A stretch of DNA of 64,000 bases from Acidobacteriota bacterium (GTDB lineage: Bacteria; Acidobacteriota; UBA6911; RPQK01; JAJDTT01), in NCBI GenBank assembly GCA_965231825.1, contig OZ246889.1:4601762-4665761 (forward strand). The letters run 5' to 3'. Numbering within the stretch: position 1 is the first letter of the stretch; each line of letters begins with the position of its first letter. A model generated the notes under the pieces. That model made no database searches, had not been told where the DNA came from, and saw only the letters and a program-made list of their open reading frames with translations. Below are positions 9,904 to 37,801 of this stretch, in pieces. The translations under genes were made by a program, and so were the position numbers.

Positions 9904-10190
9904 TCATGACCTCACCTCGCCCAGGATCTCGCCGAACAGCGCTTTGGTCACCCTCCCTATTTGCAGGATGTAACCGCGAATCTCCTCCAGCGTCCGCATC
10001 GGCTCAGGCTTGTATGCGCGGTTGGGATCGATGCCTTCGATGCGCAACGGCCTTTCCACCGTCACCCTCCAGTAGTCGAAGCCGGCATTGTCGAAGATCT
10101 TGCTGTGCTCATTCTCCTTGAACGCGAGGAATGTCTCGCAGATCCAAGCGATGTTCTCCTCGCCGAGTTCGCAGTTCTTCTTCCCCAGGT
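9904..10190 (-). pseudogene. hsdM: Type I RM M subunit C-terminal remnant
   Basis: Hand translation LGKKNCEL..SKIFDNAGFDYWRVTVERPLR..YKPEPMRTLEEI..LFGEILG; internally deleted. Confidence 0.7.
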
Positions 10191-10198
10191 GCTTCCCG

Positions 10199-11070
10199 TC
10201 AAGAAGCTGGCCACCGAGAACCAGTCTTCATCCGCTCGGCAGATGCATTTGTTGCCAGTTCCCACGACTTCTTCGTGTATGTGACGTAGCTCACGGGGGT
10301 CCTGCAAGCCTTGCAGATCGCTCCCCGTTTCCTGACGTCGCGTTTGATGGCCCAGCCGCACGTGGTGCACCGCGCAATATAACGAGGCGGGGCAAATTCC
10401 ACTTTGTGGCAACGGTCGCCGGCGCATCCGATGGAACGCGCAACTGCCTTCCAGGCGGCATCATGATTATGCTTCGGGCTGACCAGGGCGTGAGCGATCT
10501 CGTGGAGAATCGTGTCCCTGACTTGCCGGTCGGTTGCGTGGAGGCAATAGAGGCGGGAGAGTCCATTGAGGCCGAAAACGCAGACTCCCGCCAGCTTGGA
10601 GACGTCCTCAAACTGAAAGCTCCATCCCGTGAGTCCGTGCCGGCTCATCAGACGCTCAGCCTCCGCCGCGACTTCGGACAATCGTCGGCCATCATCGCGA
10701 TCGGGGTCCGGTCCGGCTCGGGTTAGCAGACCATACGGAACGTAGTAGCTTCCGTGCTCCGTGGCGACCAGGGCGCGCATGGGCCCGAGACGCGCAACGG
10801 TGCCCTCGATCCTGCCCTGACCGTGCGGGATCAAGACTTCGTTCTCCGGGCGGAATTGAGCTTTCAGTTGGTCTCGCCTCAGAGTCACTCGCTTTCTACT
10901 TTCGGCTTCGTTTTCAGCGAGGAGGTCCCATGGCACCCGGTAATCGCCGCCGCCAGTTCCTACGATTTCGGCTCTCTGAGGAGTCTTGCGGGCGATGTGC
11001 CCGCTGATCCAGACACGGAGTACCTGAACTTCAGGGGATCATGAATGCAGAACTCCGCGGGGCGAGACAC
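10199..11070 (-). pseudogene. SprT-like zinc metalloprotease, copy 1 (frameshift near 5' end)
   Basis: TILHEIAHAL..HNHDAAWK, CxxC pairs; N-terminus frameshifted relative to copy 2. Confidence 0.75.
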
Positions 11071-12736: not shown

Positions 12737-13669
12737 TCAAGACGATTCATGATTCCCGCTACGGGCCAAGATCCTCCTGAGCAACCAGGCTAGCACGCAC
12801 CCTGACAATAAGAAAAAAGGTAGCGTCATTTTTAGCACCGGTTCTAGAAACACCAACTCACTTGCCCCATCAAATAGTAGCCAACCCCACCAGTGAATCC
12901 ATCCACCGAGCACTAGACTCCATCCGATAAATCGAAAAATTGTTCCAGTTAACTTTCTCTTATCTACGGTATCAAATTGTGGTCCACCGTCTCTAGTGAT
13001 TGCCCAGACAATTAATGTTGTTGCAAGCAATAGGACGAGCTGGACAAATTTTGCCGTCGAGGTGAATGTCTGTGCCAAGTACGGCTCATTGAAAATTGTC
13101 CATGCGATCCAATGAAATATACCGAGCAATACCGACATTCCTACAATGATCTCAATGAACAACCGAAACAAACGTATCTGAAGTCGTCGAACTGAAATTA
13201 GTGGCCCTCGGGCTGCCAATCTTAGCTTTCCTAGTCCGATCTTCCCGATCAGGGGAATGTTCAAACCGAAGTTTATCTCTTTCTGTTCCATTTCTCTGTT
13301 TAATGTCGGTTCAATCGATTGTCGAATCATGTGTACAATTATTTTCGAGTTCTCGGGTGATAGTTTCTGCAACTGCTTGACGCCTCGTTCAAAGATTTCC
13401 TGAAATGTGGATCCCCTGTAATGATGAGCGAGCACACTCCAGTATGCCATCAACTGGTCCCTATCAATGTCGGATTGCAAGCCAACGGTCATTTTTCTTT
13501 TTGTAACAATGATCCGACTCATCTCTTGTCCCGCGACTGAGGCCGTTAGCTGACTCACAATTTCGCTACTGTCGTCTCGTGGAATGTATTGTTGGGCTTC
13601 TGTTAAATCCATCGGGATACCAGCGCCGCCAGTGTTGGAAGTGTCTTGGCCACCATTGATCTTTGACAC
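12737..13669 (-). CDS. Hypothetical membrane protein (about 4 C-terminal TM helices)
   Basis: Long low-GC ORF with hydrophobic C-terminal segments; start uncertain. Confidence 0.65.
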   Translation of the reverse strand: MSKINGGQDTSNTGGAGIPMDLTEAQQYIPRDDSSEIVSQLTASVAGQEMSRIIVTKRKMTVGLQSDIDRDQLMAYWSVLAHHYRGSTFQEIFERGVKQLQKLSPENSKIIVHMIRQSIEPTLNREMEQKEINFGLNIPLIGKIGLGKLRLAARGPLISVRRLQIRLFRLFIEIIVGMSVLLGIFHWIAWTIFNEPYLAQTFTSTAKFVQLVLLLATTLIVWAITRDGGPQFDTVDKRKLTGTIFRFIGWSLVLGGWIHWWGWLLFDGASELVFLEPVLKMTLPFFLLSGCVLAWLLRRILARSGNHESS

Positions 13670-13794
13670 GGCTCGTCCCTCGGTTTGACCTTGTCGGGTG
13701 CAATTGTAATTCGCAACACAATCTGATCCTGAACATAGAAAAAATGAGGTCTCAGGATTTGTAGATTGACCTAACAACCCACGTCCACCCTTAG

Positions 13795-15252
13795 CAGACT
13801 GTGGAAAAAGTCCTGATTCCTCGGACTATCGTTCTTTCCGTAATCTGATCTGGAGATGGTTTATTGATGCGTCCGGGCAGCCAAAAATCTCAAATCGAGC
13901 CGGATCGACGCCCAGAAGTGCTCCCAGAGCTGATTCCAGCCGATCAAACGGCCCTTTTTCGCTCTAAAAGGCGCAAAATGATGCGCCAGGACTCGGCCCT
14001 GCAGACTCCGGGGCGTCCCGACCCCCGTCAGGTGGCACATCAGCAATCCCAGGTTGAAACCACACACGTGGATCAGCAATCGCTTCCGGACATTGGCGTG
14101 ACCCCGGACGAAGATGCGGCGCAACCCGCCCGTGGTGAACTGATGCGCGAACGGCCGCTCCACCAACCCGCTCCGCTGCCGCTGCAGCCGTCGTCCCCGG
14201 CGGCCTCGGATCCGTCTCCGATTCGTGTACACCGGCGCTTGGTACTTCCGGTTCTTCCCCTTCCAGTTGCGCCGGCCCCGATCCGTCTCCGACAGATACC
14301 CCCGCAATCCCAGTTCCTTCAACTCTAACACCGTCTCGTTGCTGTGGTATCCCTTGTCCGCCACCACTTCCCGGACCTGTGCTCCCGACCCGACCGCCTC
14401 CACTTCCTCCCGCGCCATCCGGAGGGTGTCCCCCAACTCCTCCGGCGCCGTCACCGCCACCACCGTTCCCATCTCCAGGTCCACCGCCTCTTCCACCTTG
14501 TGCCCCAGACGGGTCCGTCCGTCCTTGAGCTTCGTGATCTTCGCGTCCGGGTCGTGCGGGTTCACCCATTCCCGGTTGCTCGTCTTCTTCTTGCGCTTCC
14601 GAACGAACCGAACCAGCTCCTCCCGGGTCGGTGTCGGGACTCCCGAGGCCTCCGCCAGTCCCTTCACGATGCTCTCATAGTCTTGCTCCGTGTCCCGGCG
14701 AACCAGACTGCGCATCGCCGCGTTCGCCTCCAACGTCGTCGCGTCGGCCCCGATCGTTTTCCCCCGCACCAGTCCCGCTTGTGCCAACTGTTTCAGCACC
14801 CAGATGAACACCTCCCCGTGCGTCTCCACGTCGATCCGTCGCCGGGTGCGCGACAAGGTCGAGTGATTCGGGGACGTCTCTTCCGGATCCAACTCCAGAA
14901 AAGCGCAGGCTCATCGAATCCGCCACTCGCCAAGCGATGGCCAGCTCCGAGTTCAGCCCTTCGAAGTACCCCACCAACAGCATCCGGAAGCACCGTCGCG
15001 GGCGCAGACTCGGTCGCCCGATCCCGTCGGCGTAAAACCGTGGGCACAGCGCTTCCACGACGACGTCGAAACCGGCTTTGTCCAGCACTTGGTTCAACCG
15101 CTCGTAGAAGGGATGCCCCGGACTCCGGGGCATTTTCTGGGTCGCCACCCACATCCCTCGTTGCCGTCTCGAAGACGGTTTCTCTCCCATGGCCATAGTG
15201 TCATTTTAGGTCAGAGGTCTGGCGTTGTTTCCCGGACTTTTGCCACGGGCTG
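13795..15252 (-). mobile_element. IS1182-like element with frameshifted DDE transposase
   Basis: Split ORFs 14675-15196 and 13861-14892 (GRPSL, DATTLEANA, VADKGY); imperfect 19-bp IRs CAGACTGTGGAAAAAGTCC / GGACTTTTGCCACGGGCTG. Confidence 0.8.
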
Positions 15253-15446
15253 ATAGGGCCCCCCACACCGATGAAAAACTCGCAATAGCTTGAGCTAAAT
15301 CCAAGCTCTCACGGCTGACGAAGCGCTCATTCACAACATCGATGACCGAACGCGCCGGCGTCTGAGCACAAGCACACCCCCTTTTTCGGTCGCGTCTCGA
15401 CCACCGCGCGCCGACGACACCGTCCGCCGTCACGGTTATGGCGCTG

Positions 15447-16382
15447 CTACTGTCGGAAGTCCACGATCTGAATCGCGATCGGCGACGTTAATGTTCCCCA
15501 AGACACGACTTCGTTGTGAGCGAGTTGGTTGCGTACGCGACGGAGCCAGTTCAGGCGCTGCCGTTCAACTCCAAGCGGGCTGCTCAACCGCGCTTGGACT
15601 GCCATATCTCCGATTTCCAGATCTTTCACACTCCGGATTCGGGTCCCGTCTTTACGAGTATGGGGCAGCCGCCAGAGAGCTCGATGAGCATTGAGAAGGC
15701 GCTGCCGTTCACGTTCCACGAGTGGAAACAGCACGGTGACCTGCGCTGCCCAGATACACTCACGGGGATGGTTTCTTGCTTCCAGTATTCGTCCCAGTGG
15801 GTCCCGCGACAACCTCTCGGCGAAAGCCAAATCAGTGCCGGCGAGCTCGGCGACAAGCGCGCTCCTGAGCACGATGTGTGCCGGTCGGTGGCCAGAGCGC
15901 CTACCGAGCCGTTCCACGAGGGCCCGAGCGTCCAGCGAGGTTACGAAATCTCGCCATAGGCGTCGGCGTAAACGTTTGTCCTCCCCACATGCTTCCGCGC
16001 ACGCCGCATCCATTGCAATGCACAGTCGCGGCATGTTTGGCAACTCGGCGAAGCGCCGAGCGTGGTCCGCCCACGCGGTTGCTGCTACATTCCCACCGGT
16101 TGCGTCGATCCACAGAACTGAGCCCGCGGCATTGCCGCCATCGAACCTCCGGGCCATGGAGTCGGATGGCACCAGTGTGTGCGCCTCGGTAGAACGTACA
16201 GCTTCCCACCGACCGAGCCTGCGATGCTTGACCAGATCCGCAATCTCCACGGCGAGTGTGGCGCTCTGAATTTCGTCGGGTAGACCAGCGAGAACGGACG
16301 TTCGGTCAGCCAGATCTTCAAGAACGGTTTCCAAAAAATCCACAGGTCCCGGCAGTCGAGCCCATGCACGCGGGAGACTCAC
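15447..16382 (-). CDS. Hypothetical protein with C-terminal HEPN-type motif (RNQLAH)
   Basis: GTG start 2 nt after the stop of the large ATPase gene; LRRVRNQLAHNE near the C-terminus. Confidence 0.7.
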   Translation of the reverse strand: MSLPRAWARLPGPVDFLETVLEDLADRTSVLAGLPDEIQSATLAVEIADLVKHRRLGRWEAVRSTEAHTLVPSDSMARRFDGGNAAGSVLWIDATGGNVAATAWADHARRFAELPNMPRLCIAMDAACAEACGEDKRLRRRLWRDFVTSLDARALVERLGRRSGHRPAHIVLRSALVAELAGTDLAFAERLSRDPLGRILEARNHPRECIWAAQVTVLFPLVERERQRLLNAHRALWRLPHTRKDGTRIRSVKDLEIGDMAVQARLSSPLGVERQRLNWLRRVRNQLAHNEVVSWGTLTSPIAIQIVDFRQ

Positions 16383-16384
16383 TC

Positions 16385-19300
16385 TCAAAGAACCCGTCTG
16401 AGGCCCTTCGCGTAAGTGGAATCGAGCCGATAGCCATTCACATCCCTGCACACGACGCCGAGATGGCTGGCCCAATTGAAGAAATCGATAACGTCTTCTG
16501 GGGACATGGTTGTGTCCTCGTCCTCAGACAGGCCCGAAAGAAGATCGACGGTCATCGACTCGTCCGGGAAAGTGGACAGGAGGTGAAGCGCCGTATCCGT
16601 GTTTTCGGATATACGAATAATGTCGGAAACATGACGACTGTGCTCGTCATTCAGCATGACTCTTATGGCCTCGTCGATCGACTCCAACTTCCTGTCCCGG
16701 GCAGCCGTTCCGACAACCAGGGGCCAAGGAAGATCCACCCGTTGATCGAGTTTTTCTAGGTCAGCATACGCTCGGGACTCCTGATCCTTTAGATAGGTGC
16801 GTGTGAAATCCAGTGCGCACGGACCAAGCCAGACATCTCGAAGTTCGACCCGCTCGTCGCTCGGCACGGTCTCATTCAACCACTTCCACGCATCCTCCGG
16901 ACCGCACAGAAATACAGGCCGAATGATTCGATCTTGCATTCGATTTTGCCGTTGATGTTTGCCGACGAATGCGAGCACGCGGGCCAACAACTCCAAGTCC
17001 CATGCGCCGCGCATGTCCACAAGAACGACATGGGTGCCGGGCTTCCGACTCCGTAAGACCCGCCGAAGCGCGCCACGTAGCGCACCAGTCGGCGCGAGCT
17101 CTTCGATGAACAATGACTCATCCCATTTGTCGGCCGCCTGCCTAAGAGAGTCGCCTACACGATGGAGTCCGGCTAGGTGCGTTCCGAAAACGAGGCCGAC
17201 AGCGTAGCGGCCGGAGAGCAACCGACTCTGCTGGTGGGTCGTAAGAGAGGACGGCGTGCCATCGCTCAACCTGCTCCGAAACTGGGCAGGGTCGAAGATC
17301 GGAGGTGCTGGCTTGTTCTTAGCGTCAGTGAATCTGCGCTCGATCTCTTCATCATTGCCAAGCAACATGCGGAGATTGCGCGTTCGGATAGCGTACTCCT
17401 TGTCCGCCGCTTCCCGCAGGATTCCAAGGCCAACCATCTCTTCCAATAGGACCTCGAACGTCCAGAAGCTGGAATCGGAGGCGAATCCCTTAGGCCACTC
17501 TCTCAGCGCCGCGTCCCGTATAGCCGCGATTGGCATGGCCTGCGGACGCGCATCTTCATTATCGAAACTCTCTTTCGCGATGAGATAAGTCAGGAACTCA
17601 TAACGGAGATCGAGTTGAATCGTCCATGAAAACAGGTTGCGTATGCGGTCTCGTGTTTCCCTGGCGTTGAAGACGCGATCAACCAAGTCTGGGTGGATTG
17701 GGTAGGGTGGTCCCGCGTCATTTAGCGCATAGGACTCCTCGCGTAGCGTCTTCAGCAGTTCTTTGCAGAACTGTTGCGCGAGTGCCGGATAGTAGTTTGT
17801 TTCCGCGGCGATTCGAATGACCGAGTCGTTCGAAACAAAACGATAGCCGAGCGCCTCAAGAGGGCCACTTATGAGATTCTGGATTTCGTCACCATCGTCT
17901 CCCGGCAGCATCGGGCCGATACGGACGGCTTCACCCATGTGAGCAAAAGGCGTGTTGGGGTCGCGGGCCGCGCGCTGGACGTTATGCAAACCAGCGAATA
18001 CGACCTTGAATCTCCGTTCGGTCTGTTCCATGAGTCGCTTGATCTGTTCCAGGACTCTATAACCCTGTTCCGGACTGCCCTCAGCGCGCAAAAAGGCGTC
18101 GGCCTCGTCTACCAACAGAAGGACACGACGGCCTTGGTCCATTTCGAGCCATCTTCTGACGCTCTTACCGATCGTCTCATGACGGCGCGTTCCACGTCCA
18201 ACGACCCCGTAGTCCGTGAGCTTCTCGGCGAATAACGGCCACAAATCCTCTGTTGGCAGATTCTCTCCAATACCCGTTCCCTTCAGGTTGATGAGCAATA
18301 CCAGCTCTTCCGATGCGTCCGGTTTTCTTGTCCTGTATTCACGCGCGACATCAGCTAGGAGAGTCGTCTTGCCGAGACGCCTACCACCGTATACGAAATG
18401 GGCCATGTCGTGGGACATGGCGAGAATCTTCTGCCGCGCGGCCGACCGGCCAAAGAACATTTCGGGAGAGAGTTCCGCTGCATCCGGCTCGAATGGCTGC
18501 GAGAAGGAGAAGGCTGACACACAATCATAAAATGCAGCGAGCCGGTCGCCAGACCAAGCGGCCAAAAAAACGACGAGCGATTCATCGAGCACAATGGTCG
18601 GGTCGTATTCGTTGGTCTGGAAATCACGCGCGAGTGAACGACGCGAATCGGCGTCGAGAATTCCCAAGAATAGCGCGATATTCGGGGAACTCCCGGCTCC
18701 GTTCCGCTTGCCCACTTCACGAATAATCGCTTCTCCAGTTGTGCGTCCGCGGACGGCGAACAGCCGATATGTGCCGCTGGCGCGCGAGCCGAAATCGGGT
18801 AGCTGGGCGATGCTGCGATCTGCGACCGGCACGGCCTGAAGTGTAAACACTCCCTCTCCACCAAGTGTCTCGTCGGTGGGTCCGTGCACCCTGGCTTGTG
18901 CGAAGCCAAGCGCACTCATGAGCGCGCGCAAGCTACTGATCGAGGTCGGGCCGTCGCGCAATGCAGTCCAGGCGTCGAGGAGATCGATCCCATCTTGGGC
19001 TGCGTCCTCCGAGAGCCCGCTGGCATCGATGAATTCCTCCGAGTCCCGACTGAAGATCACACGCCGAGCACCAACGATTCCATCTCCCTCCTTATCATCA
19101 AGAGCGGTATATTTCTCGGTGAACTGCGGAAAGAACCGATCGAACGGGCGATCACTCGTAGTCTCCGGGGTCGGCAATTCCTCGCCGTGCTCGATCCGTA
19201 CGACAAAGTCCTCCGCGACTTGGAAACGACCAGAATTGATGGCCGACTCGATCCGTTCCTTCTCGTCCCGCGAAACGCCGTGAACCTGGTCGAGTGATCC

Positions 19301-21694
19301 GCGTATCGCATCACGTCGGCGCGCCTGAGCATCGTCGATCTCTTTGTCGATTTCTTCGAGCGTCGCGAAGAGTGGCCGAAAGGCGTTGGTTTCCGAGAAA
19401 TAGTCGAGCGGAATCCGATCGCGCTGCTGCTCGTAACTCTCGAGCGCAAGTGTGCCCGCTGCGTAAGCCGAGTCTAGGCGATTGCTCGTTTCTGCGATCT
19501 TGTCCTTTAGTTCCGATTGAATGTGTGCGCGTTGGCCCTCAATCACAGCGCGTGTCCGATCAGCGTCTTTCTCGTCGAGCCGTCCGGTTCGTTCTGCGAC
19601 GTTGACAGCCGCTTCCGCACCGAAGAAGTCTCCGAGGTTCGCGCGCTCCATGGCGGCTTGTGCGAAGTCTGGAGTTTCCTGTTGCGCAAGATTCCACAAA
19701 ACATCGAAATCGACGGGAAGGTCGGACGGCTGGCCAGTGTCATCGAACACTATGTCCGGCTGCGCAAGCAGTTCCCCGTTCAGCAAGTCGGTCAAGCCAA
19801 CGGGTTGGTGATCCTTCTCACCGTCCGCGACGATGAACAAGGCTGCGTAGTGTCGGAGTAATTTCTGCGCACCCTCAGCCTTGTGCAATGGCACCGCATT
19901 CATTTCCTCGAGCGCCAGATCGACCTTGTTGCGCACCGACGTACGCAACACCGCCGCCTGCTCCGTTTGGAATGGCAGCCTCTTGTCTGGACACTCTACA
20001 ATCAGGCGAAGCCAGCGATCAGAGAGCGCCAAGGCTTGATTCACCTTGTTGCGAAGATTCACCCGGGGAGACCCCTCGATCTTGTTGGTGCGTTTCCAGC
20101 TCCGGTTCTCTCGATCAATCCGGTCGATTTCCTTGTCCCCGTGAGCCCGCCAATATTCGGATATTTGTGCAACGCTTTCCACATCGATATCTTCGATTGG
20201 ATTATCGACCACCAACGAAATAATACGGCCGAGCGAAGACTGACCGTTACTTCGTTCCCAATCTTCAAGCATTCGTCTCCACACTCTGGTGGCGGCCTGA
20301 AATTTTATCTTGGATTGACGTTCGTTCGTGATCCACGACGTCGTTTCGTTGCGGAGGGCCAGTGCTCTTTCGTGCCACCTTTCCAGAGAATCCTCCTCTT
20401 GCAGGAGAGCGATGGGTAGATAAACGCCCGTCATCGACACATCGGCTGCACTCTTTGCCAGCGCTCGCAGTGACGGCGTGTCGTCGAGCCGGGATTCGAG
20501 GAAAGTAAGTAACTGGGCGACTGGTCCCCCGGGAGCCGCTAGGGCGGGCGCCAGAGCGGCGCAGGTCGTGAAGAGTGCGTGTCTGCGCCAGCCCGGTCCA
20601 TTGTCTGCGACTGTCTCCGCTTCGTGAAGCAACGTAGCGGCGAGTTCGGACAGTTCTGCGGCGACAGGCGCACGCTCGTCGGTCACATAATTGCAGGCAG
20701 CTAGTTTGATGGAATTAGCGCTTGGGAACGCGCCCGGCGCCGAGAGAGAGAGATGGTAGGCGAGTCCGAGACGACCGTGCTCGATCAACGTCGCGATGGC
20801 GTCCTCGATCCGTTCGACTGAGCCATCTTCAGTGGTGTCTGATCGCGCCAGATCATCCGCCGCTTCCGCACGTGGCTCGTCGTCGTCCGGTCGTGTTGGA
20901 CTATCCGGTGCCGCGCCGCGTTGGCGCACTGTGCCCTCGTCGCTGGTTGGTGGGGCTTCCTCCCTAGCTGATTTCGGGGCGCCTTGGCCTAGGACCACCG
21001 TTCTGGGCGCGGGTTGGTCGGCCGACCGCTTGAGCTCATCCAGACCGTCCGCACGTTCCATCGTCTCGGGCTCAGAAGGTTGGGGCGGTTCACCGAAGTC
21101 CGCGTCGAGCCGACCGGACTCCGGCTTGGTAACGGCCCAGTCTAAGGCTGCGCAGACTTGGCTGCGCTCGACGGCGAGCGCTTCGAGAGCACCGTTTAGA
21201 GAACGCACTGACTCGAAATCGGCGTCGCTCGATGCCTGCTTGAGCTTTTCATGTGTTTCCCGGTAGCGGGCGTCTACCGAGAGCCATCGTTCGACGAGGT
21301 CGAGAGCTGCGCTGACAACCTCCCGATCCACGCCGCCTTCGTCGATCCGTATCCTCAAGGCTGCCAGAGCATCCGTCGCTGTCGCCGCCCCGGCGATCGC
21401 CTCGGCGTGCCGCGTCTCCCAGTCCTCGACCTGCGCCCTTTGGAACGAGATATCGCGATTTCGAAAATGCTGGGCCTTGGCTACATCGACCAAGCTCAGC
21501 GCGGCGTCAGAGAGCGCTCGGAGTTCTTCTTCATTCAAGTGGTCGACATCGATGTCTTCGGCGATTCGCCGAATGTGCTCGACGGTCGCAACGACTCCTT
21601 CCTCCGGGAGAGGCACTTCCTCATTGCCCTGTGCCTGAAGGCCAACCCCTCCGTGGCCTCTGACCCGAACCTGCTCTTCCACACTCCCAGACAT
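16385..21694 (-). CDS. 1769-aa STAND/AAA-like NTPase
   Basis: FFGR, Walker A GGRRLGKTT, Walker B LLLVDEAD, ETNYYPALAQ; long helical N-terminus; AAGGAGG RBS. Confidence 0.85.
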   Translation of the reverse strand: MSGSVEEQVRVRGHGGVGLQAQGNEEVPLPEEGVVATVEHIRRIAEDIDVDHLNEEELRALSDAALSLVDVAKAQHFRNRDISFQRAQVEDWETRHAEAIAGAATATDALAALRIRIDEGGVDREVVSAALDLVERWLSVDARYRETHEKLKQASSDADFESVRSLNGALEALAVERSQVCAALDWAVTKPESGRLDADFGEPPQPSEPETMERADGLDELKRSADQPAPRTVVLGQGAPKSAREEAPPTSDEGTVRQRGAAPDSPTRPDDDEPRAEAADDLARSDTTEDGSVERIEDAIATLIEHGRLGLAYHLSLSAPGAFPSANSIKLAACNYVTDERAPVAAELSELAATLLHEAETVADNGPGWRRHALFTTCAALAPALAAPGGPVAQLLTFLESRLDDTPSLRALAKSAADVSMTGVYLPIALLQEEDSLERWHERALALRNETTSWITNERQSKIKFQAATRVWRRMLEDWERSNGQSSLGRIISLVVDNPIEDIDVESVAQISEYWRAHGDKEIDRIDRENRSWKRTNKIEGSPRVNLRNKVNQALALSDRWLRLIVECPDKRLPFQTEQAAVLRTSVRNKVDLALEEMNAVPLHKAEGAQKLLRHYAALFIVADGEKDHQPVGLTDLLNGELLAQPDIVFDDTGQPSDLPVDFDVLWNLAQQETPDFAQAAMERANLGDFFGAEAAVNVAERTGRLDEKDADRTRAVIEGQRAHIQSELKDKIAETSNRLDSAYAAGTLALESYEQQRDRIPLDYFSETNAFRPLFATLEEIDKEIDDAQARRRDAIRGSLDQVHGVSRDEKERIESAINSGRFQVAEDFVVRIEHGEELPTPETTSDRPFDRFFPQFTEKYTALDDKEGDGIVGARRVIFSRDSEEFIDASGLSEDAAQDGIDLLDAWTALRDGPTSISSLRALMSALGFAQARVHGPTDETLGGEGVFTLQAVPVADRSIAQLPDFGSRASGTYRLFAVRGRTTGEAIIREVGKRNGAGSSPNIALFLGILDADSRRSLARDFQTNEYDPTIVLDESLVVFLAAWSGDRLAAFYDCVSAFSFSQPFEPDAAELSPEMFFGRSAARQKILAMSHDMAHFVYGGRRLGKTTLLADVAREYRTRKPDASEELVLLINLKGTGIGENLPTEDLWPLFAEKLTDYGVVGRGTRRHETIGKSVRRWLEMDQGRRVLLLVDEADAFLRAEGSPEQGYRVLEQIKRLMEQTERRFKVVFAGLHNVQRAARDPNTPFAHMGEAVRIGPMLPGDDGDEIQNLISGPLEALGYRFVSNDSVIRIAAETNYYPALAQQFCKELLKTLREESYALNDAGPPYPIHPDLVDRVFNARETRDRIRNLFSWTIQLDLRYEFLTYLIAKESFDNEDARPQAMPIAAIRDAALREWPKGFASDSSFWTFEVLLEEMVGLGILREAADKEYAIRTRNLRMLLGNDEEIERRFTDAKNKPAPPIFDPAQFRSRLSDGTPSSLTTHQQSRLLSGRYAVGLVFGTHLAGLHRVGDSLRQAADKWDESLFIEELAPTGALRGALRRVLRSRKPGTHVVLVDMRGAWDLELLARVLAFVGKHQRQNRMQDRIIRPVFLCGPEDAWKWLNETVPSDERVELRDVWLGPCALDFTRTYLKDQESRAYADLEKLDQRVDLPWPLVVGTAARDRKLESIDEAIRVMLNDEHSRHVSDIIRISENTDTALHLLSTFPDESMTVDLLSGLSEDEDTTMSPEDVIDFFNWASHLGVVCRDVNGYRLDSTYAKGLRRVL

Positions 21695-22022
21695 CCGGTG
21701 CCTCCTTCTCTTTCTGGACCTTAGAAAAGTTAGCTAAACTACTCTCCATGGACACTATACTATAGGGACTACTACTCTGACTCTTCACAAGCCCAGAAAC
21801 CTTTAGCGGTAAAATCTCTAAGGGTTTCCCCCGCACAGACCGGGATCTCTTGGGCTACGACCATTACTAAATTTATAGGACATTCGCTGGGGAATTTTGG
21901 TACGACATCGGGGTCTTGCCGTTTCTCTCGGAAGCATGCATCAGCCCTGACTCGCTCAGAAACACGGATCAGCAGAAGATCACCCGAAATGTTGAAGATA
22001 ACAGCTTCCGAAGACGCTGCCT

Positions 22023-23631
22023 TGGAGTTGACCCGCTTTCGTGGACACATCCAAAGTAAGGGGAAGGAGGGATCCACGATGGCAAGAAAGGGTCGACGGT
22101 ACCCGCCGGAGTTCCGGCGGGAGATCGTGGGGCTGGTGCGCTCAGGCCGATCACCGGAGGCGCTGGCCGAGGAGTTCGAGCCCTCGGCATCGGCGATCCG
22201 GAAGTGGGTCAAGCAAGCCGATCTGGATGAGGGGCGCCGCAACGACGGGTTGACGACATTTGAGCGCCAGGAGCTGCGCCAGGCGAAGCGGGAGATCAAG
22301 CGGCTGCGGATGGAGCGGGACATCCTAAAAAAAGCCGCGGCTTGGTTCGCCCGGGAGAGCGGCTCGATCCCCGGAAAGGATTCGAGTTCGTGAAGGCGCA
22401 CCGAGCCCGGTTTCCGATTCGGGTGATGTGCCGTGTTCTGGGTCTCTCCCCCAGCGGGTACTACGCCTGGTTGAAGCGCCGACCCTCGAAGCGCGCCCGC
22501 CGCGACGAGGCGCTTCGGAAAATGATCGTGCGGATCTGGAATGAGAACCGGAGAGTTTATGGTCGGCCTCGCCTGCATGCCGAGTTGAGAGCTCGAGGCG
22601 AACGGACGAGCCCGAAGCGTGTGGGTCGATTGATGCAGGAAGCCGGGATCCAGGGGGTGAGCCGGAGGCAGCGGAAGGCCGGGCTCACCCGGAGGGACCG
22701 GAAAGCGCGTCCGGCACCGGACTTGGTGAACCGGAACTTCGCGGCCGAGGGACCGGATCAGCTCTGGGTCGCGGACCTCACCTATGTCCGCACGAAGGCG
22801 GGCTGGTTGTATGTGGCCGTGGTTCTGGATGCTTGGAGCCGCTTGGTCGTGGGCTGGGCCATGGAGACGCATCTGCGCTCCGAACTCGTCGAGAAAGCGC
22901 TCGCCATGGCGGTGATCCGGCGCCAGCCGAAGCAGGTGATCCACCACTCGGACCAAGGGACGCAGTACACCTGCACTGCCTTCGGGAAGCGATGCCGGGA
23001 GGCTGGGGTGCGACCCTCGATGGGATCGGTGGGGGACGCTTACGATAACGCGATGTGCGAGAGCTTCTTCGCGACTTTGGAGTGCGAGTTGCTGGACCGT
23101 CACCGATTCCGGAACCCGGGTGAGGCGAGGCGGGCCGTCTTCGACTTCATTGAGGGATTCTACAATCGGCAACGCCGGCATTCGGCGCTGGGTTACGAGT
23201 CGCCGGCCCATTACGAGCAGCAGGCGGCGTAGGACCCACGCCGGCTTCGAGCGGCCCGACCACGAAGCCAGCACCGCCATCGTTGCACCAAGCGTCGCGC
23301 GCGACACGCTTGAAGGGGGCAGGGGGGCTCTGCCCCCCTGAAACCCCCCGGATGCAAAGAGACATATAAAACTCTTAAATCCCTGGAAACAGAGACCGAG
23401 GCCCCCTCGTTAAGCGGTATCCCATTGTGGAAAATCAGAGATTTCCCACAACGTGAGCCCTTTTGCTGACGCGTCCACCAGTCGCCCCCACACGGAAAGA
23501 AAGAGCGCTCTGTCAGTGGCCATTGACCTTCATCGGGAGGAAGTCTTGCTCCCCACGGACAGAAGGAGTATTACAAACAGGACCAACGTAGTCCGCACTA
23601 ACAAACCGTCCACGAAAACGGGACACCCTCA
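22023..23631 (+). mobile_element. IS3-family element, copy 1 (orfA 22079-22393, orfB to 23232)
   Basis: TG...CA ends with imperfect IRs; GCCT target duplication; A7G slippery site; WVADLTY, HSDQG, DNAMCESFF. Confidence 0.95.
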
Positions 23632-26287: not shown

Positions 26288-28240
26288 TTACGGCGGCCCC
26301 GTCGGTTTGTACGTTAGCCGGAACGACAGATTGCTCATCCACTGCTTGAAATCCGGATCGTCCATGAACTTCTTGAACAGTTGGGTGTCGTCCTTCATCA
26401 CCGCCATCATGACTCGTAGGAGAGCCTTGTCGTGCTCGATACGGGCGTTCTCCCGGTCCGAGTTCTTCTGAGCGTTCCTGAAAGCGGTGTCCTGCGCGAC
26501 TCGCGACGGAATCGTTTCGGTGATGAGCTGGAGCACCCGGTCTCCGTCCTCCCAGGGAATGTTGCCAAAAAGATCGTTGAACGCCTTGATGATGTTGGAC
26601 AAGAGGTCCAGCTCGGGATCGGCACGGCCACCGAAACCGGAGTCCGAACTGGGGCCGATCTCGGCATCCTCATCCGGCAGCAGGATCTTCTGCATCGCCT
26701 TCTTCTCGACCCGGTAGCTGTCCATGTCGATGGCGTCGAGGATGCCCTTGGACATATCCCCCTCACGCGGGGACGGTAACTTCGAGACCAGGAAGTTCAG
26801 GAAGATCGAGCGTTCTTCCCACTTGGCGTTGTTGTACGGCAGGACCGAAGAGAGGAAGGCGTAGGTTCTCAGGAATCCCTTGGCCTGGCGCTTGAACTGA
26901 ACCTGCCCGTCTTCGTCGAGGTCCTGCAGGTACACCTCTACGCAAGCCTCCAGGATGGGATCCAGCTCCTCGCGATCCTCGCCGGCCAAGTAGCGCGACA
27001 CGAAGTCTTTGACCTGCTCGGATGAATAGACCTGGGCGCCGTCCAGGTCGGCCTGGAGGTCGTGCAGCTTGTTGGGATCGGTTTCTTCGGACAGGATCGT
27101 CCCTCGATAGTAGTCGGCGAAGGCGTCTCGGATGGTGTCCGACTCGTTCAGGAAATCCAGCACGAACACATCGTGCTTCTTGGGGTGCGCCCGGTTGAGC
27201 CGGGAGAGGGTCTGGACCGCCCTGACGCCGGAGAGCGTCTTGTCCACGTACATCGTGTGCAGCAGAGGTTCGTCGTAGCCGGTCTGGAACTTGTCCGCAC
27301 AGACCAGAAAGCGGTACGGATCCTCCCGGAACCTCTCGGCAATCCTGTTCGACGGAAAGCCGTTCAGCTTGGACTCGCTCAGCTTCGCTCCGCCGTACTC
27401 ATGCTTCCCCGAGAAGGCTACGATGGCCTGGTAGCGGCTCTTTCGTTCCTTCAGGTAGTCGCGGATGGCATGGTAGTATTGGATCGCTCGTTCGATCCCG
27501 TTGGTGACGACCATCGCCCGGGCTCTGCCGCCGATCTTGCCATGGGACAGGACCTGGCTGTGGAAGTGGTCCACCACGATCTCCGACTTGAGGCGGATCG
27601 CGTGGTCGTGCCCCTCGACGTAGCGCCGCAGCTTCCTGCGGGCCTTCTTGACGTCGAACTCGGGATCGTCCTCCACCGTCTTGGCGAGCTTGTAGTAGCT
27701 CTTGACCGGCGTGTAGTGGCGCAGCACATCCAGGATGAAACCCTCCTGGATCGCCTGCTTCATGCTGTAGGTGTGAAAGGCGTGATGCCGGACCGTACCG
27801 TCGCTCTGCGGGTCCGCATCGCCGAAGATCTCCAGCGTCTTGTTCTTGGGCGTGGCGGTGAAGGCGAAGTAGCTGGCGTTGGGGAGGATCTTGCGCGATT
27901 CCATCGCGCGGTTGATCCGATCCTCGTAGGTCTCCTCGTCCTCGGCTTCTCCCGCCTTGCCCAGCGCCTTGGCCATGGCTGCGGCGGTTCTGGATCGTCG
28001 AGATGATGATCTTCTTGCCGGACTCGATGAACCGCCGCAGGTCGCCGGAACGCTCGGCGTGTCCCACCGTCGAGCGCACCTGGACGTATTTCCTGATCGT
28101 GTCCCGGATCTGCCGGTCCAGGATGCGGCGATCGGTGACGACAATGATGGAGTCGAAAACCGGAGCGTCGTCCTTTTCAAGCCGGATCAGTTGGTGGGCC
28201 AGCCATGCGATCGAAAGGCTCTTCCCGCTGCCCGCCGCAA
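26288..28240 (-). pseudogene. hsdR: Type I restriction subunit R, 5'-truncated with internal deletion
   Basis: AGSGKS.SIAW, VVTDR, FTATP, KFQTGYDEP, AVQTLSRLNR; DEAH box and nuclease domain missing; frameshift at ~27990. Confidence 0.9.
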
Positions 28241-28267
28241 CGCGCCATCGTACGCCATCGCGCCATC

Positions 28268-28299
28268 GTAGAGAGGGTGACTGCCCCCTTCTTTCTCCC
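28268..28299 (+). repeat. GTAG-tagged hairpin at the hsdR truncation
   Basis: GTAGAGAGGGTGACTGCCCCCTTCTTTCTCC preceded by three CGCCATCG micro-repeats. Confidence 0.7.
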
Positions 28300-28940
28300 C
28301 GGTGCGGCAATCGAGCACATCCGCCAGCACAGTGCCACCGGATCCCGTAGCCAACTCCGTTCTCCCTCATCAGTCGAAAGGCATAGTATCTGTGCGTTTC
28401 TCGTCGCTGGCCATGCCCATCTCCAACAAGCTAGCCTTGCGGGTCTCTGGACGACCAGTGACGCCCTCCCCGGTCCAAGGAGGCGGGCAAGGAGCGAAAA
28501 AAGCCATTCAAGTCGATGGCAGCAGTGAGTTTCAGGCCGACTCCGAGCAGGCCTGTCAGCGATTGAGGTTATCCTTACGTGTGGGTCGTAAATTCTCCGA
28601 ATCGGTGATTACTTTCTAGAGCCGTGGGCACCTACGAAGGGGACGGGTTCCGCACACTGATTTCGAGGCGGCATGAATAAGACTCTGAGGTGTCCGAGCG
28701 AGGACACGATAAGTGGTGCCTGTAATCATGAGACTGGATGCCCAATGGGGAAGGAATCGAACCGCTGACGGCGAAGAAAACAGGTAAGAGACAAAGGGCC
28801 AGAGTGCTTAGGGGCGAAGTCGGTAACCGTCAAGGAGAGCTCCTCACCGATTTCAACAGCGGAAAGCAGGTTCGTGCGACACTCAGGAAGTGGACGCTAT
28901 TCAGATCTTCGCTCGTCGTCTCGTTGAATATTTAGGAAAG

Positions 28941-33600: not shown

Positions 33601-33745
33601 GTTCGATCGATCACCGCGTGACAGGATCCGCCTCGGTCGGGAATCCGCTGATCTCGCACAACAAATCGAGCAGCGCGTCAGCCAAGTATTCGGCCTTGTT
33701 CCCGAGGATCAAGCCATCATCGATGCAGTGCTGGTTCCAGACTGA
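30683..33745 (+). CDS. Type IIG restriction endonuclease-methyltransferase (Eco57I/BpmI-like)
   Basis: KPDY..FVEAKK nuclease, DICCGSGTFL, GNPPY, TaqI_C-like TRD; ATGA overlap with upstream MTase. Confidence 0.9.
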   Translation: MTDPAAKAAARARVAELVGLFKRNEADYLRAAYNETQARTEFITPLLHAFGWDVYNSKGHQLALREVIEEATVEVGEEKSHKKPDYELRLARQRKLFVEAKKPKVPIDIDLAAAFQIRRYGFSASLPISVLTNFRQLAIYDCQTAPNATEPANVARLLIIACEEFEARFDELWPMLSRESVYSGEFDRQFDVAGTRRGAEQFDDLFLKQVRDWRERLAIDIHRNKPGLTSGELTYAVQLFLSRIIFLRICEDREIEKYETLRNLGGGGIFDALMTELRRADAFYDSGLFRLMDDARLGIRISDATLTAIINELYYPTSPYTFAVVEPEVLGEIYELFLGDVIAIEAGHVKIIRKPEVRESGGVIPTPRYIADTITERTLLPLLAGKSPAELQEFRVADICCGSGTFLLAAYEVLCDHYLNWYLDHDRETHIGHRIYKVVANQWRLTFNEKRYILIAHLRGVDIDPNAVEITQFSVLLKLIENETAEALKNHVDRTHTAALPSLDDAIRCGNSLVSLPEWRSACGADRIDDQINPFNWQTEFPREIATGGFDAIIGNPPYIRIQNMAKYSPAEATFYRQAASPYSTAARDNFDKYAIFIERSICLVKPLGRVGMIVPHKFMTIQAGRSLRRLIAADRLLREVVHFGVKQVFGADAANYTCILILERSTADEVRLERPGSLEAWRYGEAGSINLIPAAELGEDPWQFANAETRALFDRISAAHPQQLGTVAEIFVGLQTSANDVYIFQAVAVDGTTCTLRWNDRDWSIEREILHPSLLKVSLVQFARPQPNTWIIFPYELIPNATGRVTAHLIQPADMAARFPGCWTYLNARRQELNERNIQGGRVAERQWYQYGRSQSLTKFDRDKIILPILSVEPRYAYDDRGILVTGGGNGPYYMIRRRPNADFSNHYLLAVLNHPLSEAFVRTNTSPFRGGYYSHGKQFIQTLPIPFPDNAARREIEALVMALIEKRDGLGFDRSPRDRIRLGRESADLAQQIEQRVSQVFGLVPEDQAIIDAVLVPD

Positions 33746-33789
33746 TCCCAAAACCGGCAGCCGTCCGACACGACTCGACGAACCAATCC

Positions 33790-34022
33790 AAGGTTTAATG
33801 CTGCAGCAACGGATTTCGAGGATGTCATGATGCGGCTTGACCTCTGAAACATCGCCATCGCCACGAATTGGCCCCAGCGAGTCATTCTGCGCTGCTTCGC
33901 GCCCCTGTGGTGCGCTCTCGCGTCCCTCTCGAATTCCTGTCTCGATACCAGCTTGACGAATGGCCCGAGTCCGATATTCTTGTGAGCCAGGGCTTGGATC
34001 TCCTTTGACTTGTCGGATTTAG
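33790..34022 (-). pseudogene. IS4-family (DUF4372) transposase N-terminal remnant; its left end lies at 40845-40913
   Basis: AHKN...KLVSRQEFE..A..HH.G...R..TRWGQFVAMAM.Q; AAGGAG RBS; probable terminus CATTGTTGTCCCACAAAG at 40913. Confidence 0.6.
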
Positions 34023-34025
34023 CCG

Positions 34026-35635
34026 TGGAGTTGACCCGCTTTCGTGGACACATCCAAAGTAAGGGGAAGGAGGGATCCACGATGGCAAGAAAGGGTCGAC
34101 GGTACCCGCCGGAGTTCCGGCGGGAGATCGTGGGGCTGGTGCGCTCAGGGCGTTCGCCGGAGGCATTGGCCGAGGAGTTCGAACCCTCGGCATCGGCGAT
34201 CCGGAAGTGGGTCAAGCAAGCCGATCTGGATGAGGGGCGCCGCAACGACGGATTGACGACATTTGAGCGCCAGGAGCTGCGCCAGGCGAAGCGGGAGATC
34301 AAGCGGCTGCGGATGGAGCGGGACATCCTAAAAAAAGCCGCGGCTTGGTTCGCCCGGGAGAGCGGCTCGATCCCCGGCAAGGATTCGAGTTCGTGAAGGC
34401 GCACCGAGCCCGGTTTCCGATTCGGGTGATGTGCCGTGTTCTGGGTCTCTCCCCCAGCGGGTACTACGCCTGGTTGAAGCGCCCACCCTCGAAGCGCGCC
34501 CGTCGCGACGAGGCGCTTCGGAAAACGATCGTGCGGATCTGGAACGAGAACCGGAGAGTTTATGGTCGGCCTCGCCTGCATGCTGAGTTGAGAGCTCGAG
34601 GCGAACGGACGAGCCCGAAGCGTGTGGGTCGATTGATGCAGGAAGCCGGGATCCAGGGGGTGAGCCGGAGGCAGCGGAAAGCCGGGCTTACCCGGAGGGA
34701 CCGGAAGGCGCGTCCGGCACCGGACCTGGTGAACCGGAACTTCGCGGCCGAGGGACCGGATCAGCTCTGGGTCGCGGACCTCACCTATGTCCGCACGAAG
34801 GCGGGCTGGTTGTATGTGGCCGTGGTTCTGGATGCTTGGAGCCGCTTGGTCGTGGGCTGGGCCATGGAGACGCATCTGCGCTCCGAACTCGTCGAGAAGG
34901 CGCTCGCCATGGCGGTGATCCGGCGCCAGCCGAAGCAGGTGATCCACCACTCGGACCAAGGGACGCAGTACACCTGCACTGCCTTCGGGAAGCGATGCCG
35001 GGAGGCTGGAGTGCGACCCTCGATGGGATCGGTGGGGGACGCTTACGATAACGCGATGTGCGAGAGTTTCTTCGCGACGCTGGAGTGCGAGTTGCTGGAC
35101 CGTCACCGATTCCGGAACCCGGGTGAGGCGAGGCGGGCCGTCTTTGACTTCATTGAGGGATTCTACAACCGGCAACGCCGGCATTCGGCGCTGGGTTACG
35201 AGTCGCCGGCCCACTACGAGCAGCAGGCGGCATAGGACCCACGCCGGCTTCGAGCAGCCCGACCACGAAGCCAGCACCACCACCGTCGCACCCAGCGCCG
35301 CGCGCGACACGCTTGAAGGGGGCAGGGGGGCTCTACCCCCCTGAGACCCCCCGGATGCAAAGAGACATAAATAAACTCTTAAATCCCTGGAAAGAGAGAC
35401 CGAGGCCCCCTCGTTAAGCGGTATCCCATTGTGGAAAATCAGAGATTTCCCACAACGTGAGCCCTTTTGCTGACACGTCCACCAGTCGCCCCCACACGGA
35501 AAGAAAGAGCGTTCTGTCAGTGGCCATTGACCTTCGTCGAGAGGAAGTCTTGCTCCCCACCGACAGAAGGGGTATTAAACTTACGAGCAACGTAGACCGC
35601 ACCAACAAACCGTCCACGAAATCGGGACACCCTCA
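34026..35635 (+). mobile_element. IS3-family element, copy 2
   Basis: Nearly identical to copy 1; CCG target duplication. Confidence 0.95.
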
Positions 35636-36787: not shown

Positions 36788-37801
36788 TTACAGGGAATCC
36801 AGAAACGCCATCAGTGTCGAGTCGCTGTGCCAAGTGGGAGTGGCGGATGGTGACAAGTCTGGCACGTTGTCCGCACAGGTTTCGAGGGCCTTCGCCTTCC
36901 GGTCCAGATCGACTTCAGCGTATCGGTTCGTCGTCTCGAGGGAGACATGACCCAGCCACGCGCGGATGGTATTGATGTCGACCCCGGCGCGGAGCAGGTG
37001 CACGGCGGTGGTGTGCCGCAGAGTGTGGGGGCTCACTCGCTTGGCGAGCAGGGACGGGGTGGTGAGCGCCGCTACCTGGGCGGTGCGCTTGACGAGCGCG
37101 TAGACACCGTGGCGGGTGAGGGGGCGGCCTTGCTTGCTGAGAAACACCGGGGCCTCGTGGGAGTTGTCGAGGCGTGCACCGAGCAGGTCGCGCAAGGTGT
37201 CCGCGGTGCGTGTCCAGAGCGGACAGACGCGCTGCTTGCGGCCCTTGCCGATGAAGCGCGCCGCGAGGGTCGCCGCGAGGTTGAGATCCGCGACCCGCAA
37301 GCCGGCTGCCTCGCTGGCCCGGGCCCCTGTGTTGTACAGCAGGAGCAGAAGAGCGTAGTCCCGGCGGCCCTGCAAGCGACGGCGATCCGGCACGGCGAGG
37401 AGGGCCTCGACCTCGGCCTTTTCCAAATAGGGGACGACGGGAAGCGCGGCGCGGCAGGGCGGAATGGCTTGGATCTGCGCGGCGTGGTCCACCAGTTCCG
37501 GCACGAGCCGTCCGGTGAAGCGGAACAGCGAGCGCAGGGCCGTGAGGCGCTGGTTGCGGGTGGCCGCGGAGCTTTTGCGGCGGTCTTTGAGATGGCGCAG
37601 GAACTCGCGTAGCAGGGTCGCGTCGACCTGCTCGACAGTCACGCGGGTCGGGTCGGTCCCGTGCCGCTCGGCGAGGAAGCGGAAGAGCAGTCGGATCGTG
37701 TCGCGGTAGCTCTTATGCGTGTTCGGGCTGAGACCCCGTTCGGCAACTTCCTCGACCAGGAAGCGGCGGACGAACGGGCCGATCGGGTGTGTGGGATTCA
37801 T
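36788..37801 (-). CDS. Tyrosine recombinase, RIT gene C
   Basis: LYNTGARASE, GKGRKQR, HTLRH, WLGH, Y. Confidence 0.92.
   Translation of the reverse strand: MNPTHPIGPFVRRFLVEEVAERGLSPNTHKSYRDTIRLLFRFLAERHGTDPTRVTVEQVDATLLREFLRHLKDRRKSSAATRNQRLTALRSLFRFTGRLVPELVDHAAQIQAIPPCRAALPVVPYLEKAEVEALLAVPDRRRLQGRRDYALLLLLYNTGARASEAAGLRVADLNLAATLAARFIGKGRKQRVCPLWTRTADTLRDLLGARLDNSHEAPVFLSKQGRPLTRHGVYALVKRTAQVAALTTPSLLAKRVSPHTLRHTTAVHLLRAGVDINTIRAWLGHVSLETTNRYAEVDLDRKAKALETCADNVPDLSPSATPTWHSDSTLMAFLDSL

Follow-up and report, generated by a model that had tools for sequence, protein, structure and literature searches.

A giant STAND-type ATPase and an adjacent HEPN-bearing partner form a patchily distributed gene pair with a probable role against invading elements

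We analysed a stretch of 64,000 nucleotides from an Acidobacteriota bacterium (GCA_965231825.1, contig OZ246889.1, positions 4,601,762 to 4,665,761; hereafter the window), in which two adjacent genes encode a giant protein of 1769 aa and a partner of 311 aa. The giant carries the only working nucleotide switch of the pair, a module of the ATPase_2/ORC-Cdc6/STAND type with intact Walker A and Walker B motifs, and the partner joins a dead copy of the giant's ATPase fold to a predicted HEPN domain with an invariant R-N-x3-H motif. We read the pair, with a probability of about 0.62, as a self-contained, horizontally mobile two-gene module directed against invaders, of the kind in which an active STAND protein is matched by an inactive STAND protein that bears an effector. 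A role against viruses or mobile elements is what we infer as most likely.

An earlier note on this DNA had described an intact 1769-aa open reading frame (ORF) followed, two bases downstream, by one of 311 aa, and ORF reading and translation bore this out. The giant gene (16385-21694, reverse strand) is an uninterrupted frame of 1769 aa plus stop, and the partner gene (15447-16382, reverse strand) encodes 311 aa plus stop from a GTG start at 16382, the junction reading TGA-GA-GTG with two bases between the giant's stop and the partner's start. This GTG was taken as the start because 43 aligned homologues begin at the same residue; a reading of the partner of 342 codons, from a TTG inside the giant gene, was rejected, as the homologue starts agree with the GTG. 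In sequence searches the giant had 178 relatives and the partner 164, the lowest E-values being 0, and thus both frames are real genes and not chance ones. The source genome has one copy of the giant gene. The names seen for relatives in their sources were only "hypothetical protein", "ATP-binding protein" or "AAA family ATPase". A scan of 14800-22100 found no promoter-like site, and the terminator-like sites in it all fall within genes. All six motifs quoted in the note (FFGR, GGRRLGKTT, LLLVDEAD, LVFGTHLAG, VVLVD and RNQLAH) were found in their places by coordinate translation. The two proteins are divided as follows, all on the reverse strand.

16385..21694, giant gene, an active STAND/ORC-type ATPase with long N- and C-terminal extensions
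20810..21694, giant residues 1-295, conserved helical start followed by a variable Pro/Asp/Glu-rich linker (alignment A2)
18908..20809, giant residues 296-929, strongly conserved, all-helical, of no recognised family (alignment A2; DSSP for 574-929)
18515..18892, giant residues 935-1060, alpha/beta domain with three strands, then helix-strand-helix-strand (AlphaFold model)
17354..18499, giant residues 1066-1447, NTPase module of ATPase_2/ORC-Cdc6/STAND type
18365..18388, Walker A GGRRLGKT, giant residues 1103-1110 (translation)
18098..18121, Walker B LLLVDEAD, giant residues 1192-1199 (translation)
16784..17290, giant residues 1469-1637, second Rossmann-like alpha/beta domain (DSSP of the model)
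16388..16768, giant residues 1643-1769, helical, with a winged-helix-like unit at the end (DSSP of the model)
15768..16382, partner residues 1-205, inactive STAND/AAA+ module (no Walker A lysine, no conserved Walker B acid)
15450..15767, partner residues 206-311, predicted HEPN RNase domain of Abi2/Swt1 type (motif conservation; Pfam in relatives)
15516..15533, RNQLAH, partner residues 284-289, predicted Rx4H catalytic motif (translation)

The catalytic residues of the giant are conserved throughout its family. G1103, G1104, G1108 and K1109 of Walker A, and D1196, E1197 and D1199 of Walker B, are invariant in 16 diverse relatives, with identity as low as 23%. R1241 is also invariant (16/16), and the models suggest that it may serve as an arginine finger. 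The module has the order of nucleotide-binding domain, helical lid and winged helix. The sole Pfam match of the giant was AAA_22 (residues 1097-1240, E 1.3e-6, 29.2 bits against a cut-off of 27); NACHT and ATPase_2 stayed below cut-off for it, and ATPase_2 matched 13/16 relatives at E<=0.5. The fold search of the giant's ATPase placed PAB2304 and NLRs above BrxC. The STAND-like NTPase named in the earlier note was thus upheld both by a Pfam match over cut-off and by fold matches of the STAND/ORC type.

The regions on both sides of this switch were visualized in an AlphaFold model of residues 570-1769 only (43 sequences; mean pLDDT 77.1, pTM 0.46). Part of the helical N-terminus, the alpha/beta segment and the degenerate second P-loop, all proposed earlier from the letters, could be seen in it. 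Residues 574-929 form long helices. For the first 569 residues, alignment indicated a conserved helical head, a variable acidic and proline-rich linker and further conserved helices. Pfam gave no match in residues 1-295 of the giant, and none in 296-929 across the 16 diverse relatives. In the domain at 935-1060, a glycine loop (G969-S970-x3-G974) and D1037 are invariant in the 16 diverse giants, even at 23% identity; the strand order is compatible with a restriction-endonuclease fold, but no conserved PD-(D/E)xK residues lie on the expected strands. FFGR is at residue 1080, close before Walker A. In the second alpha/beta domain, LVFGTHLAG (residue 1501) forms a strand, a glycine loop without a lysine and a helix, VVLVD (residue 1556) is a strand, and G1504 is invariant among the 16 diverse giants. 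Foldseek, run with the whole giant model, ranked tandem AAA+ proteins (p97 and NSF among them) highest, which agrees with the presence of a second, dead module in the giant.

The partner had been described in the earlier note as a HEPN-motif protein. The conserved RNxxxH motif stood; the protein, however, is not a plain HEPN protein, as two thirds of it are an inactive STAND/AAA+ module. Its AlphaFold model is of high score (pLDDT 92.9, 43-sequence alignment), and a fold search with residues 1-209 returned ATPases of the STAND/ORC type. The P-loop position reads AGLPDEI. Since the Walker A lysine is absent and the Walker B position is unconserved, we regard the module as a dead ATPase. The model shows residues 206-311 as helices plus a small hairpin; RNQLAH ends helix 269-288, and a loop and short helices (295-306) come after it, the assignment of helices 1 and 2 being ambiguous. 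A survey of HEPN domains gives as their hallmark Rx4-6H in which N, D or H, all polar, comes directly after the R; the motif closes helix 3 of a core of four helices, the last of which comes after it (PMC3710099). R284 and H289 were present in 42/42 diverse family members, with identity down to 20%, and position 285 was N in 33, H in 5, D in 3 and R in 1 of them (N, H or D in 41/42). A Pfam scan of the 42 members gave matches to HEPN_Swt1 in 8 (best E 2.9e-5), pEK499_p136 in 3, and Abi_2, DUF4145 and HepT-like in 1 each. In the window's own partner Pfam recognised no family. On the pattern of the motif, its placement and the HEPN profile matches in relatives, we accept, with a reservation as to its fold, that the C-terminal domain is a HEPN domain of Abi2/Swt1 type and a predicted RNase.

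The two genes are closely linked. The giant was directly upstream of the partner in 16 of the 18 loci with a partner match (the window, L002-L008, L011-L014 and L024-L027). The exceptions, L009 and L010, held around 10000-10450 only C-terminal remnants of the partner (frames of 93 and 147 aa) and no giant gene, and are probably decayed copies of the module. Among the nine loci of species-representative genomes, the full pair was present in 7, L002 being one of them, with its giant gene broken into two frames. Outside the window, an overlap of 4 nt between the partner and the giant's stop is usual. No other gene was conserved around the pair among the window and L002-L008. The two conservation checks suggested in the earlier note, on the adjacency of the genes and on the R and H of the motif, thus both came out in its favour.

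Within the phylum, the partner-family profile (A4) matched 6/401 genomes, the source genome included, each with the giant directly upstream. None of the 8 other genomes of the genus had an orthologue of the window's partner when the protein was used as the query. The congeners G004 and G007 gave weak matches to it, and the A4 profile matched G004 and G005; all three carry a divergent pair, with giants of 1891 and 2008 aa and partners of 372 and 371 aa in the two weakly matching ones. The proteins of the L011 pair are 27% and 24% identical to those of the window. Records labelled Bryobacterales, Chromatiales, Gemmatimonadota, Paracoccaceae and Pseudomonadales include relatives of 50-80% identity; that proteins of different phyla are so alike points to transfer. 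The pair is also present on a plasmid of Salinibacter ruber, with proteins of 1927 and 377 aa. Among 1.84 billion sequences, the partner profile found 1458 cluster representatives (50% identity) at E<=0.001, 631 of them at E<=1e-10, and most are "long forms" of 365-385 aa. The pair is rare and patchy within its phylum, and it is found across phyla and on plasmids.

The note had put the pair forward as a candidate undescribed system; the architecture, however, is not undescribed. Kaur, Iyer, Burroughs and Aravind (eLife 2021) predicted a mobile nSTAND2 operon of two genes, each product of which has a STAND module; in one product the NTP-binding motifs are eroded and the module is most commonly fused to a GT4 or HEPN domain. 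They proposed that the two proteins form a toroidal hetero-multimer (PMC8195603). The pair studied here is likewise made of two adjacent genes, each with a STAND module, the eroded one, in the partner, being fused to HEPN. Moreover, the profile of the giant's NTPase aligned in hhalign with two genuine nSTAND2 proteins of one genome at probabilities of 96.9% and 96.3% over 247 and 231 columns, and with an unrelated AAA_14 ATPase, used as a control, at 33.6% over 18 columns. EMFFGR and GxRRxGK[ST] are motifs common to the giant and the nSTAND2 proteins. The Pfam nSTAND2 family (PF20702) left the giant and the partner unmatched at E<=1, its search of the source genome matched neither gene, and it had no matches on the pairs of G004, G005, G158, G214 and G403. 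A genuine PF20702 match is present elsewhere in G158 (E 4.7e-66; L028, 3623-8030, contig C64), where adjacent genes encode proteins of 826 and 640 aa, both with a GERRxGK[ST] Walker A, in the same genome that also has the pair studied here. The active protein of our pair, in contrast, is longer (1769-2073 aa): some 1065 residues precede its ATPase, and a dead second alpha/beta domain follows. Judged by sequence, the pair is a divergent, much larger, separate branch of the nSTAND2-like predicted kind, and its ATPase is a distant relative; we place it there because of the shared operon logic and the homology found by hhalign, yet PF20702 does not match it. The organisation as such was therefore already predicted in 2021, and the source data of that paper may or may not list this branch. 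Besides that prediction, we came across no named system built in this way in the literature searched (PMC12839542, PMC10853773 and PMC13092281 among it), although the supplementary data of these papers may list the family.

Other known systems were compared as well. BrxC and the DUF499 ATPases have an ORC/STAND ATPase followed by a winged helix, an alpha/beta domain and another winged helix (PMC12839542), which is the domain order of the giant, and both DUF499/HmaC and BrxC associate with HEPN domains of the Abi2/Swt1 type (PMC12839542; PMC3710099). Their HEPN, however, is an N-terminal fusion to the active ATPase, and a methylase and a helicase are required. In our pair, a second protein with a dead ATPase bears the HEPN domain, and there is no conserved methylase or helicase. 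PADLOC gave no match to BrxC, PglY or Hma, DUF499 did not match the giant at E<=1 and was absent from the 25 listed of the 28 Pfam families found for 16 giant relatives, and in the loci compared (no shared neighbours among the window and L002-L008; flanks scanned with Pfam) no methylase, helicase or PglZ is conserved beside the pair. In Avs systems a single chain combines an effector at its N-terminus with a repeat sensor at its C-terminus. Our pair, in contrast, consists of two proteins without a repeat sensor, and neither had a PADLOC match to Avs. The archaeal ATPase_2 (PF01637) proteins PAB2304 (2qen) and SSO1545 (2fna) are stand-alone proteins of about 350 aa without extensions or a partner. 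As for the pPIWI-RE systems (PF13032, PF13111, PF18157), the window's giant has no PIWI module, unlike its relative from Azospirillum, which has one together with a protein of the partner family.

That relative belongs to a wider group of proteins. A tblastn search of plasmids found the giant's core in 27 records; a partner match was present in 8 plasmid records, and none of these 8 is from Streptomyces. On a plasmid of Azospirillum oryzae (L014, 1191-12631), a 3256-aa protein combines a complete pPIWI-RE module (X, MID and RNase H domains) with the ATPase core, and the protein encoded downstream (525 aa) matches the partner profile at E 3.7e-52, keeps the motif as RRGMAH and has an extra P-loop domain of the kinase-like AAA_33 type. 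Relatives named "RNaseH domain-containing", which resemble the Azospirillum fusion, were also seen on Microvirga and Bradyrhizobium plasmids. The Brasilonema octagenarum plasmid pBOCT2 (L015, 6175-13044) encodes a 2289-aa relative of the giant that begins with a complete sigma-70 factor (regions 1.2, 2, 3 and 4); a PLD-nuclease/SNF2 helicase follows it instead of the HEPN partner, and then a relaxase. No partner was present among the neighbours checked of a Streptomyces relative (L016). Prokaryotic immune systems usually keep one switch and exchange the front ends and effectors attached to it, as is established for STAND and related systems (PMC8195603, PMC10853773), and by analogy the pPIWI-RE and sigma-70 variants would be modular swaps typical of such systems.

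If the pair acts as we propose, the partner's dead ATPase module would dock on the giant's ATPase, like the inactive subunits in the origin recognition complex (ORC) or clamp loaders, where the principle of a dead ATPase subunit is known, and this docking would keep the RNase as an inactive monomer. A phage or plasmid cue would then be read by the long N-terminal helical and alpha/beta region or by the C-terminal winged helices, the candidate readers being the first 930 residues, which are conserved, the winged helices, and the alpha/beta domain at 935-1060, whose glycine loop is invariant. The cue may drive ATP-dependent oligomerisation, which would pair two HEPN domains into a composite RNase site. 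The cutting of cellular RNA, invader RNA or both could then stop the growth of the infected cell, as in abortive infection. If the defence role is confirmed, a large family, unnamed in the databases searched, would be added to the STAND/NLR-like immune repertoire. The pair would also be a clean case of a dead ATPase subunit delivering an RNase to an active switch, a principle unproven in immunity. Independent of this, both genes gain a usable description for annotation.

Several observations weigh against this reading. The window's own partner had no Pfam HEPN match at E<=0.5, only more distant members of the family having one. The fold search with part of the partner covered residues 1-209, and in searches with the whole models the lists were taken up by the ATPase domains. 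R141 of the partner, a candidate arginine finger in the models, is only partly conserved (R in 28/42 and H in 11/42). The hhalign comparisons among the partner's dead module, the giant's second alpha/beta domain, its ATPase and its 935-1060 domain all gave probabilities below 1%, so that no similarity among the dead modules and the giant's ATPase was detected at the sequence level. The protein-protein binding, the oligomerisation, the trigger and the RNA target all belong to the proposal and not to the observations; a complex prediction for giant residues 1081-1769 with the partner scored 0.19 against a mark of 0.32 and is uninformative either way. As to the defence role put forward in the earlier note, the island of restriction and IS (insertion sequence) genes in the window speaks for it. 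In a Pfam scan of six other genomes, however, the flanks were mostly housekeeping genes (RNase J, DXP synthase, TonB receptors, AnmK), and a defence-like neighbour, AAA_14/DUF4143, was present at only 1 of these six loci. A defence-island signal is therefore not established beyond the window and the plasmid, and the role stays a prediction. PADLOC-DB 2.0 (2023), the one library of defence systems scanned, contained no model matching either protein, and the pair thus has no link to a validated system. The weak PADLOC matches of the giant (mad8, E 0.0073; PDC-S01, E 0.031) are short stretches around the ATPase motifs. Taken as a whole, the earlier reading is partly supported, and the observation from which it started is confirmed.

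The alternatives account for parts of the same evidence. Tight coupling of the two genes, and their presence on plasmids and between IS elements, would suit an addiction module resembling toxin-antitoxin systems, with the HEPN partner as a toxin restrained by the giant and the pair kept because its loss kills the cell; HEPN RNases are common as toxins of such systems (PMC3710099). We consider this unlikely, as a strongly conserved 1769-aa ATPase with intact catalytic motifs far exceeds the needs of toxin neutralisation, and as a regulated effector would account for the gene order and for the dead ATPase module by which the partner is proposed to dock; besides, addiction and abortive infection are not exclusive roles. 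There is still less to be said for a DNA-scanning restriction ATPase, related to BREX or DUF499/Hma-like, whose usual partners (methylase, helicase, PglZ) would be missing or encoded elsewhere and for which HEPN would be a back-up effector. Apart from the absence of PADLOC, DUF499 and neighbouring-gene signals described above, and the better fold matches to PAB2304 and NLRs than to BrxC, an IS element lies between the methylases of the window and the pair.

The mostly housekeeping flanks in the six genomes are what would be expected if the pair were a cellular machine of RNA processing or stress response with no role in conflicts with invaders, and some HEPN proteins have housekeeping roles in eukaryotes, as the same survey states (PMC3710099). 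A patchy presence in 6/401 genomes of the phylum, with an orthologue of the window's pair in 0/8 congeners, together with high identity across phyla, which points to transfer, occurrence on plasmids and fusion of the core to pPIWI-RE, leaves little probability for it. An accessory transposon ATPase that chooses target DNA, like TnsC, MuB or TniB, is the least credible of these readings: no transposase was conserved beside the pair in any other locus compared, the IS elements that flank it in the window are complete, unrelated units, with a second copy of one of them lying at a distance of 12 kb, and a HEPN RNase has no place in such machinery. The reading of the pair as a two-gene module against invaders thus remains the one that we prefer.

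A bolder version of it may also be considered, although we hold it only tentatively and think it rather doubtful: that the family is a distinct, widespread immune machine in which one live STAND ATPase and two dead modules, one in the same chain and one in the HEPN partner, assemble into a hetero-oligomer resembling ORC, with the N-terminal region of about 1000 residues as its reader of nucleic acid or of the transcription machinery. The presence of pPIWI-RE or sigma-70 ahead of the core in relatives would point to the sensing of RNA-DNA hybrids or of RNA polymerase hijacking. To our knowledge, this is not a known class of trigger for STAND systems, and the two fusions suggest testable ideas on what such switches sense.

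An NCBIfam scan of both proteins gave nothing meaningful. Searches of PDB sequences gave nothing relevant with the giant family profile (best E 0.0042, a nucleoporin coiled coil) and nothing at E<=10 with the partner family profile. The ESM Atlas returned only unnamed clusters and neighbours labelled AAA_22 or nSTAND1, which we take as no more than leads. Among sequencing runs, one labelled "sponge metagenome" contained half of the sampled words and others contained small shares, from which we drew no conclusion on habitat; no RNA run was listed among the holders of the sampled words, and no conclusion on expression was drawn.

The island around the pair in the window contains a Macro-domain protein, SprT-like genes, an EVE-domain protein, a DDE transposase, IS elements and a split hsdR, as well as an Eco57I-type methylase, a type IIG enzyme, two tyrosine integrases and GmrSD. 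Its features outside the pair are as follows.

22019-23631 and 34022-35635, orfA/orfB on the forward strand, two IS3-type copies, 96.7% identical over 1615 bp, in direct orientation, 12 kb apart
26288-28180 (T1R_D3-like rest) and 27399-28370 (SWI2/SNF2-ResIII N-terminal part), broken hsdR, the R subunit of a type I restriction enzyme, in two overlapping frames
12737-13777, reverse strand, ORF of 346 aa without a Pfam match, in a low-GC segment
11437-12564, EVE-domain protein, adjoining the 346-aa ORF
13861-14892, DDE transposase, adjoining the 346-aa ORF
42218-43165, DUF2971 gene

The earlier note had many of the neighbours down as pseudogenes, and this is true of at least hsdR. The 511-aa ORF upstream of the pair (21772-23307), on the contrary, is an artefact antisense to the IS3-type orfA/orfB and was rejected as a third gene of the system; its counterpart over the second IS3 copy (533 aa, 33709-35310) is an artefact of the same sort. 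The two IS3-type copies bracket a SprT-like gene, the split hsdR, the Eco57I-type methylase and the type IIG genes. On the other side of the pair, the GC content of the segment 12001-14000 is 0.47, compared with about 0.6 elsewhere. Two adjacent tyrosine integrase genes and, further on, a complete GmrSD type IV restriction gene were observed at 36788-39588 and 44641-46440. With the integrases, GmrSD and DUF2971 lying further on, the mobile and defence island reaches well beyond the pair.

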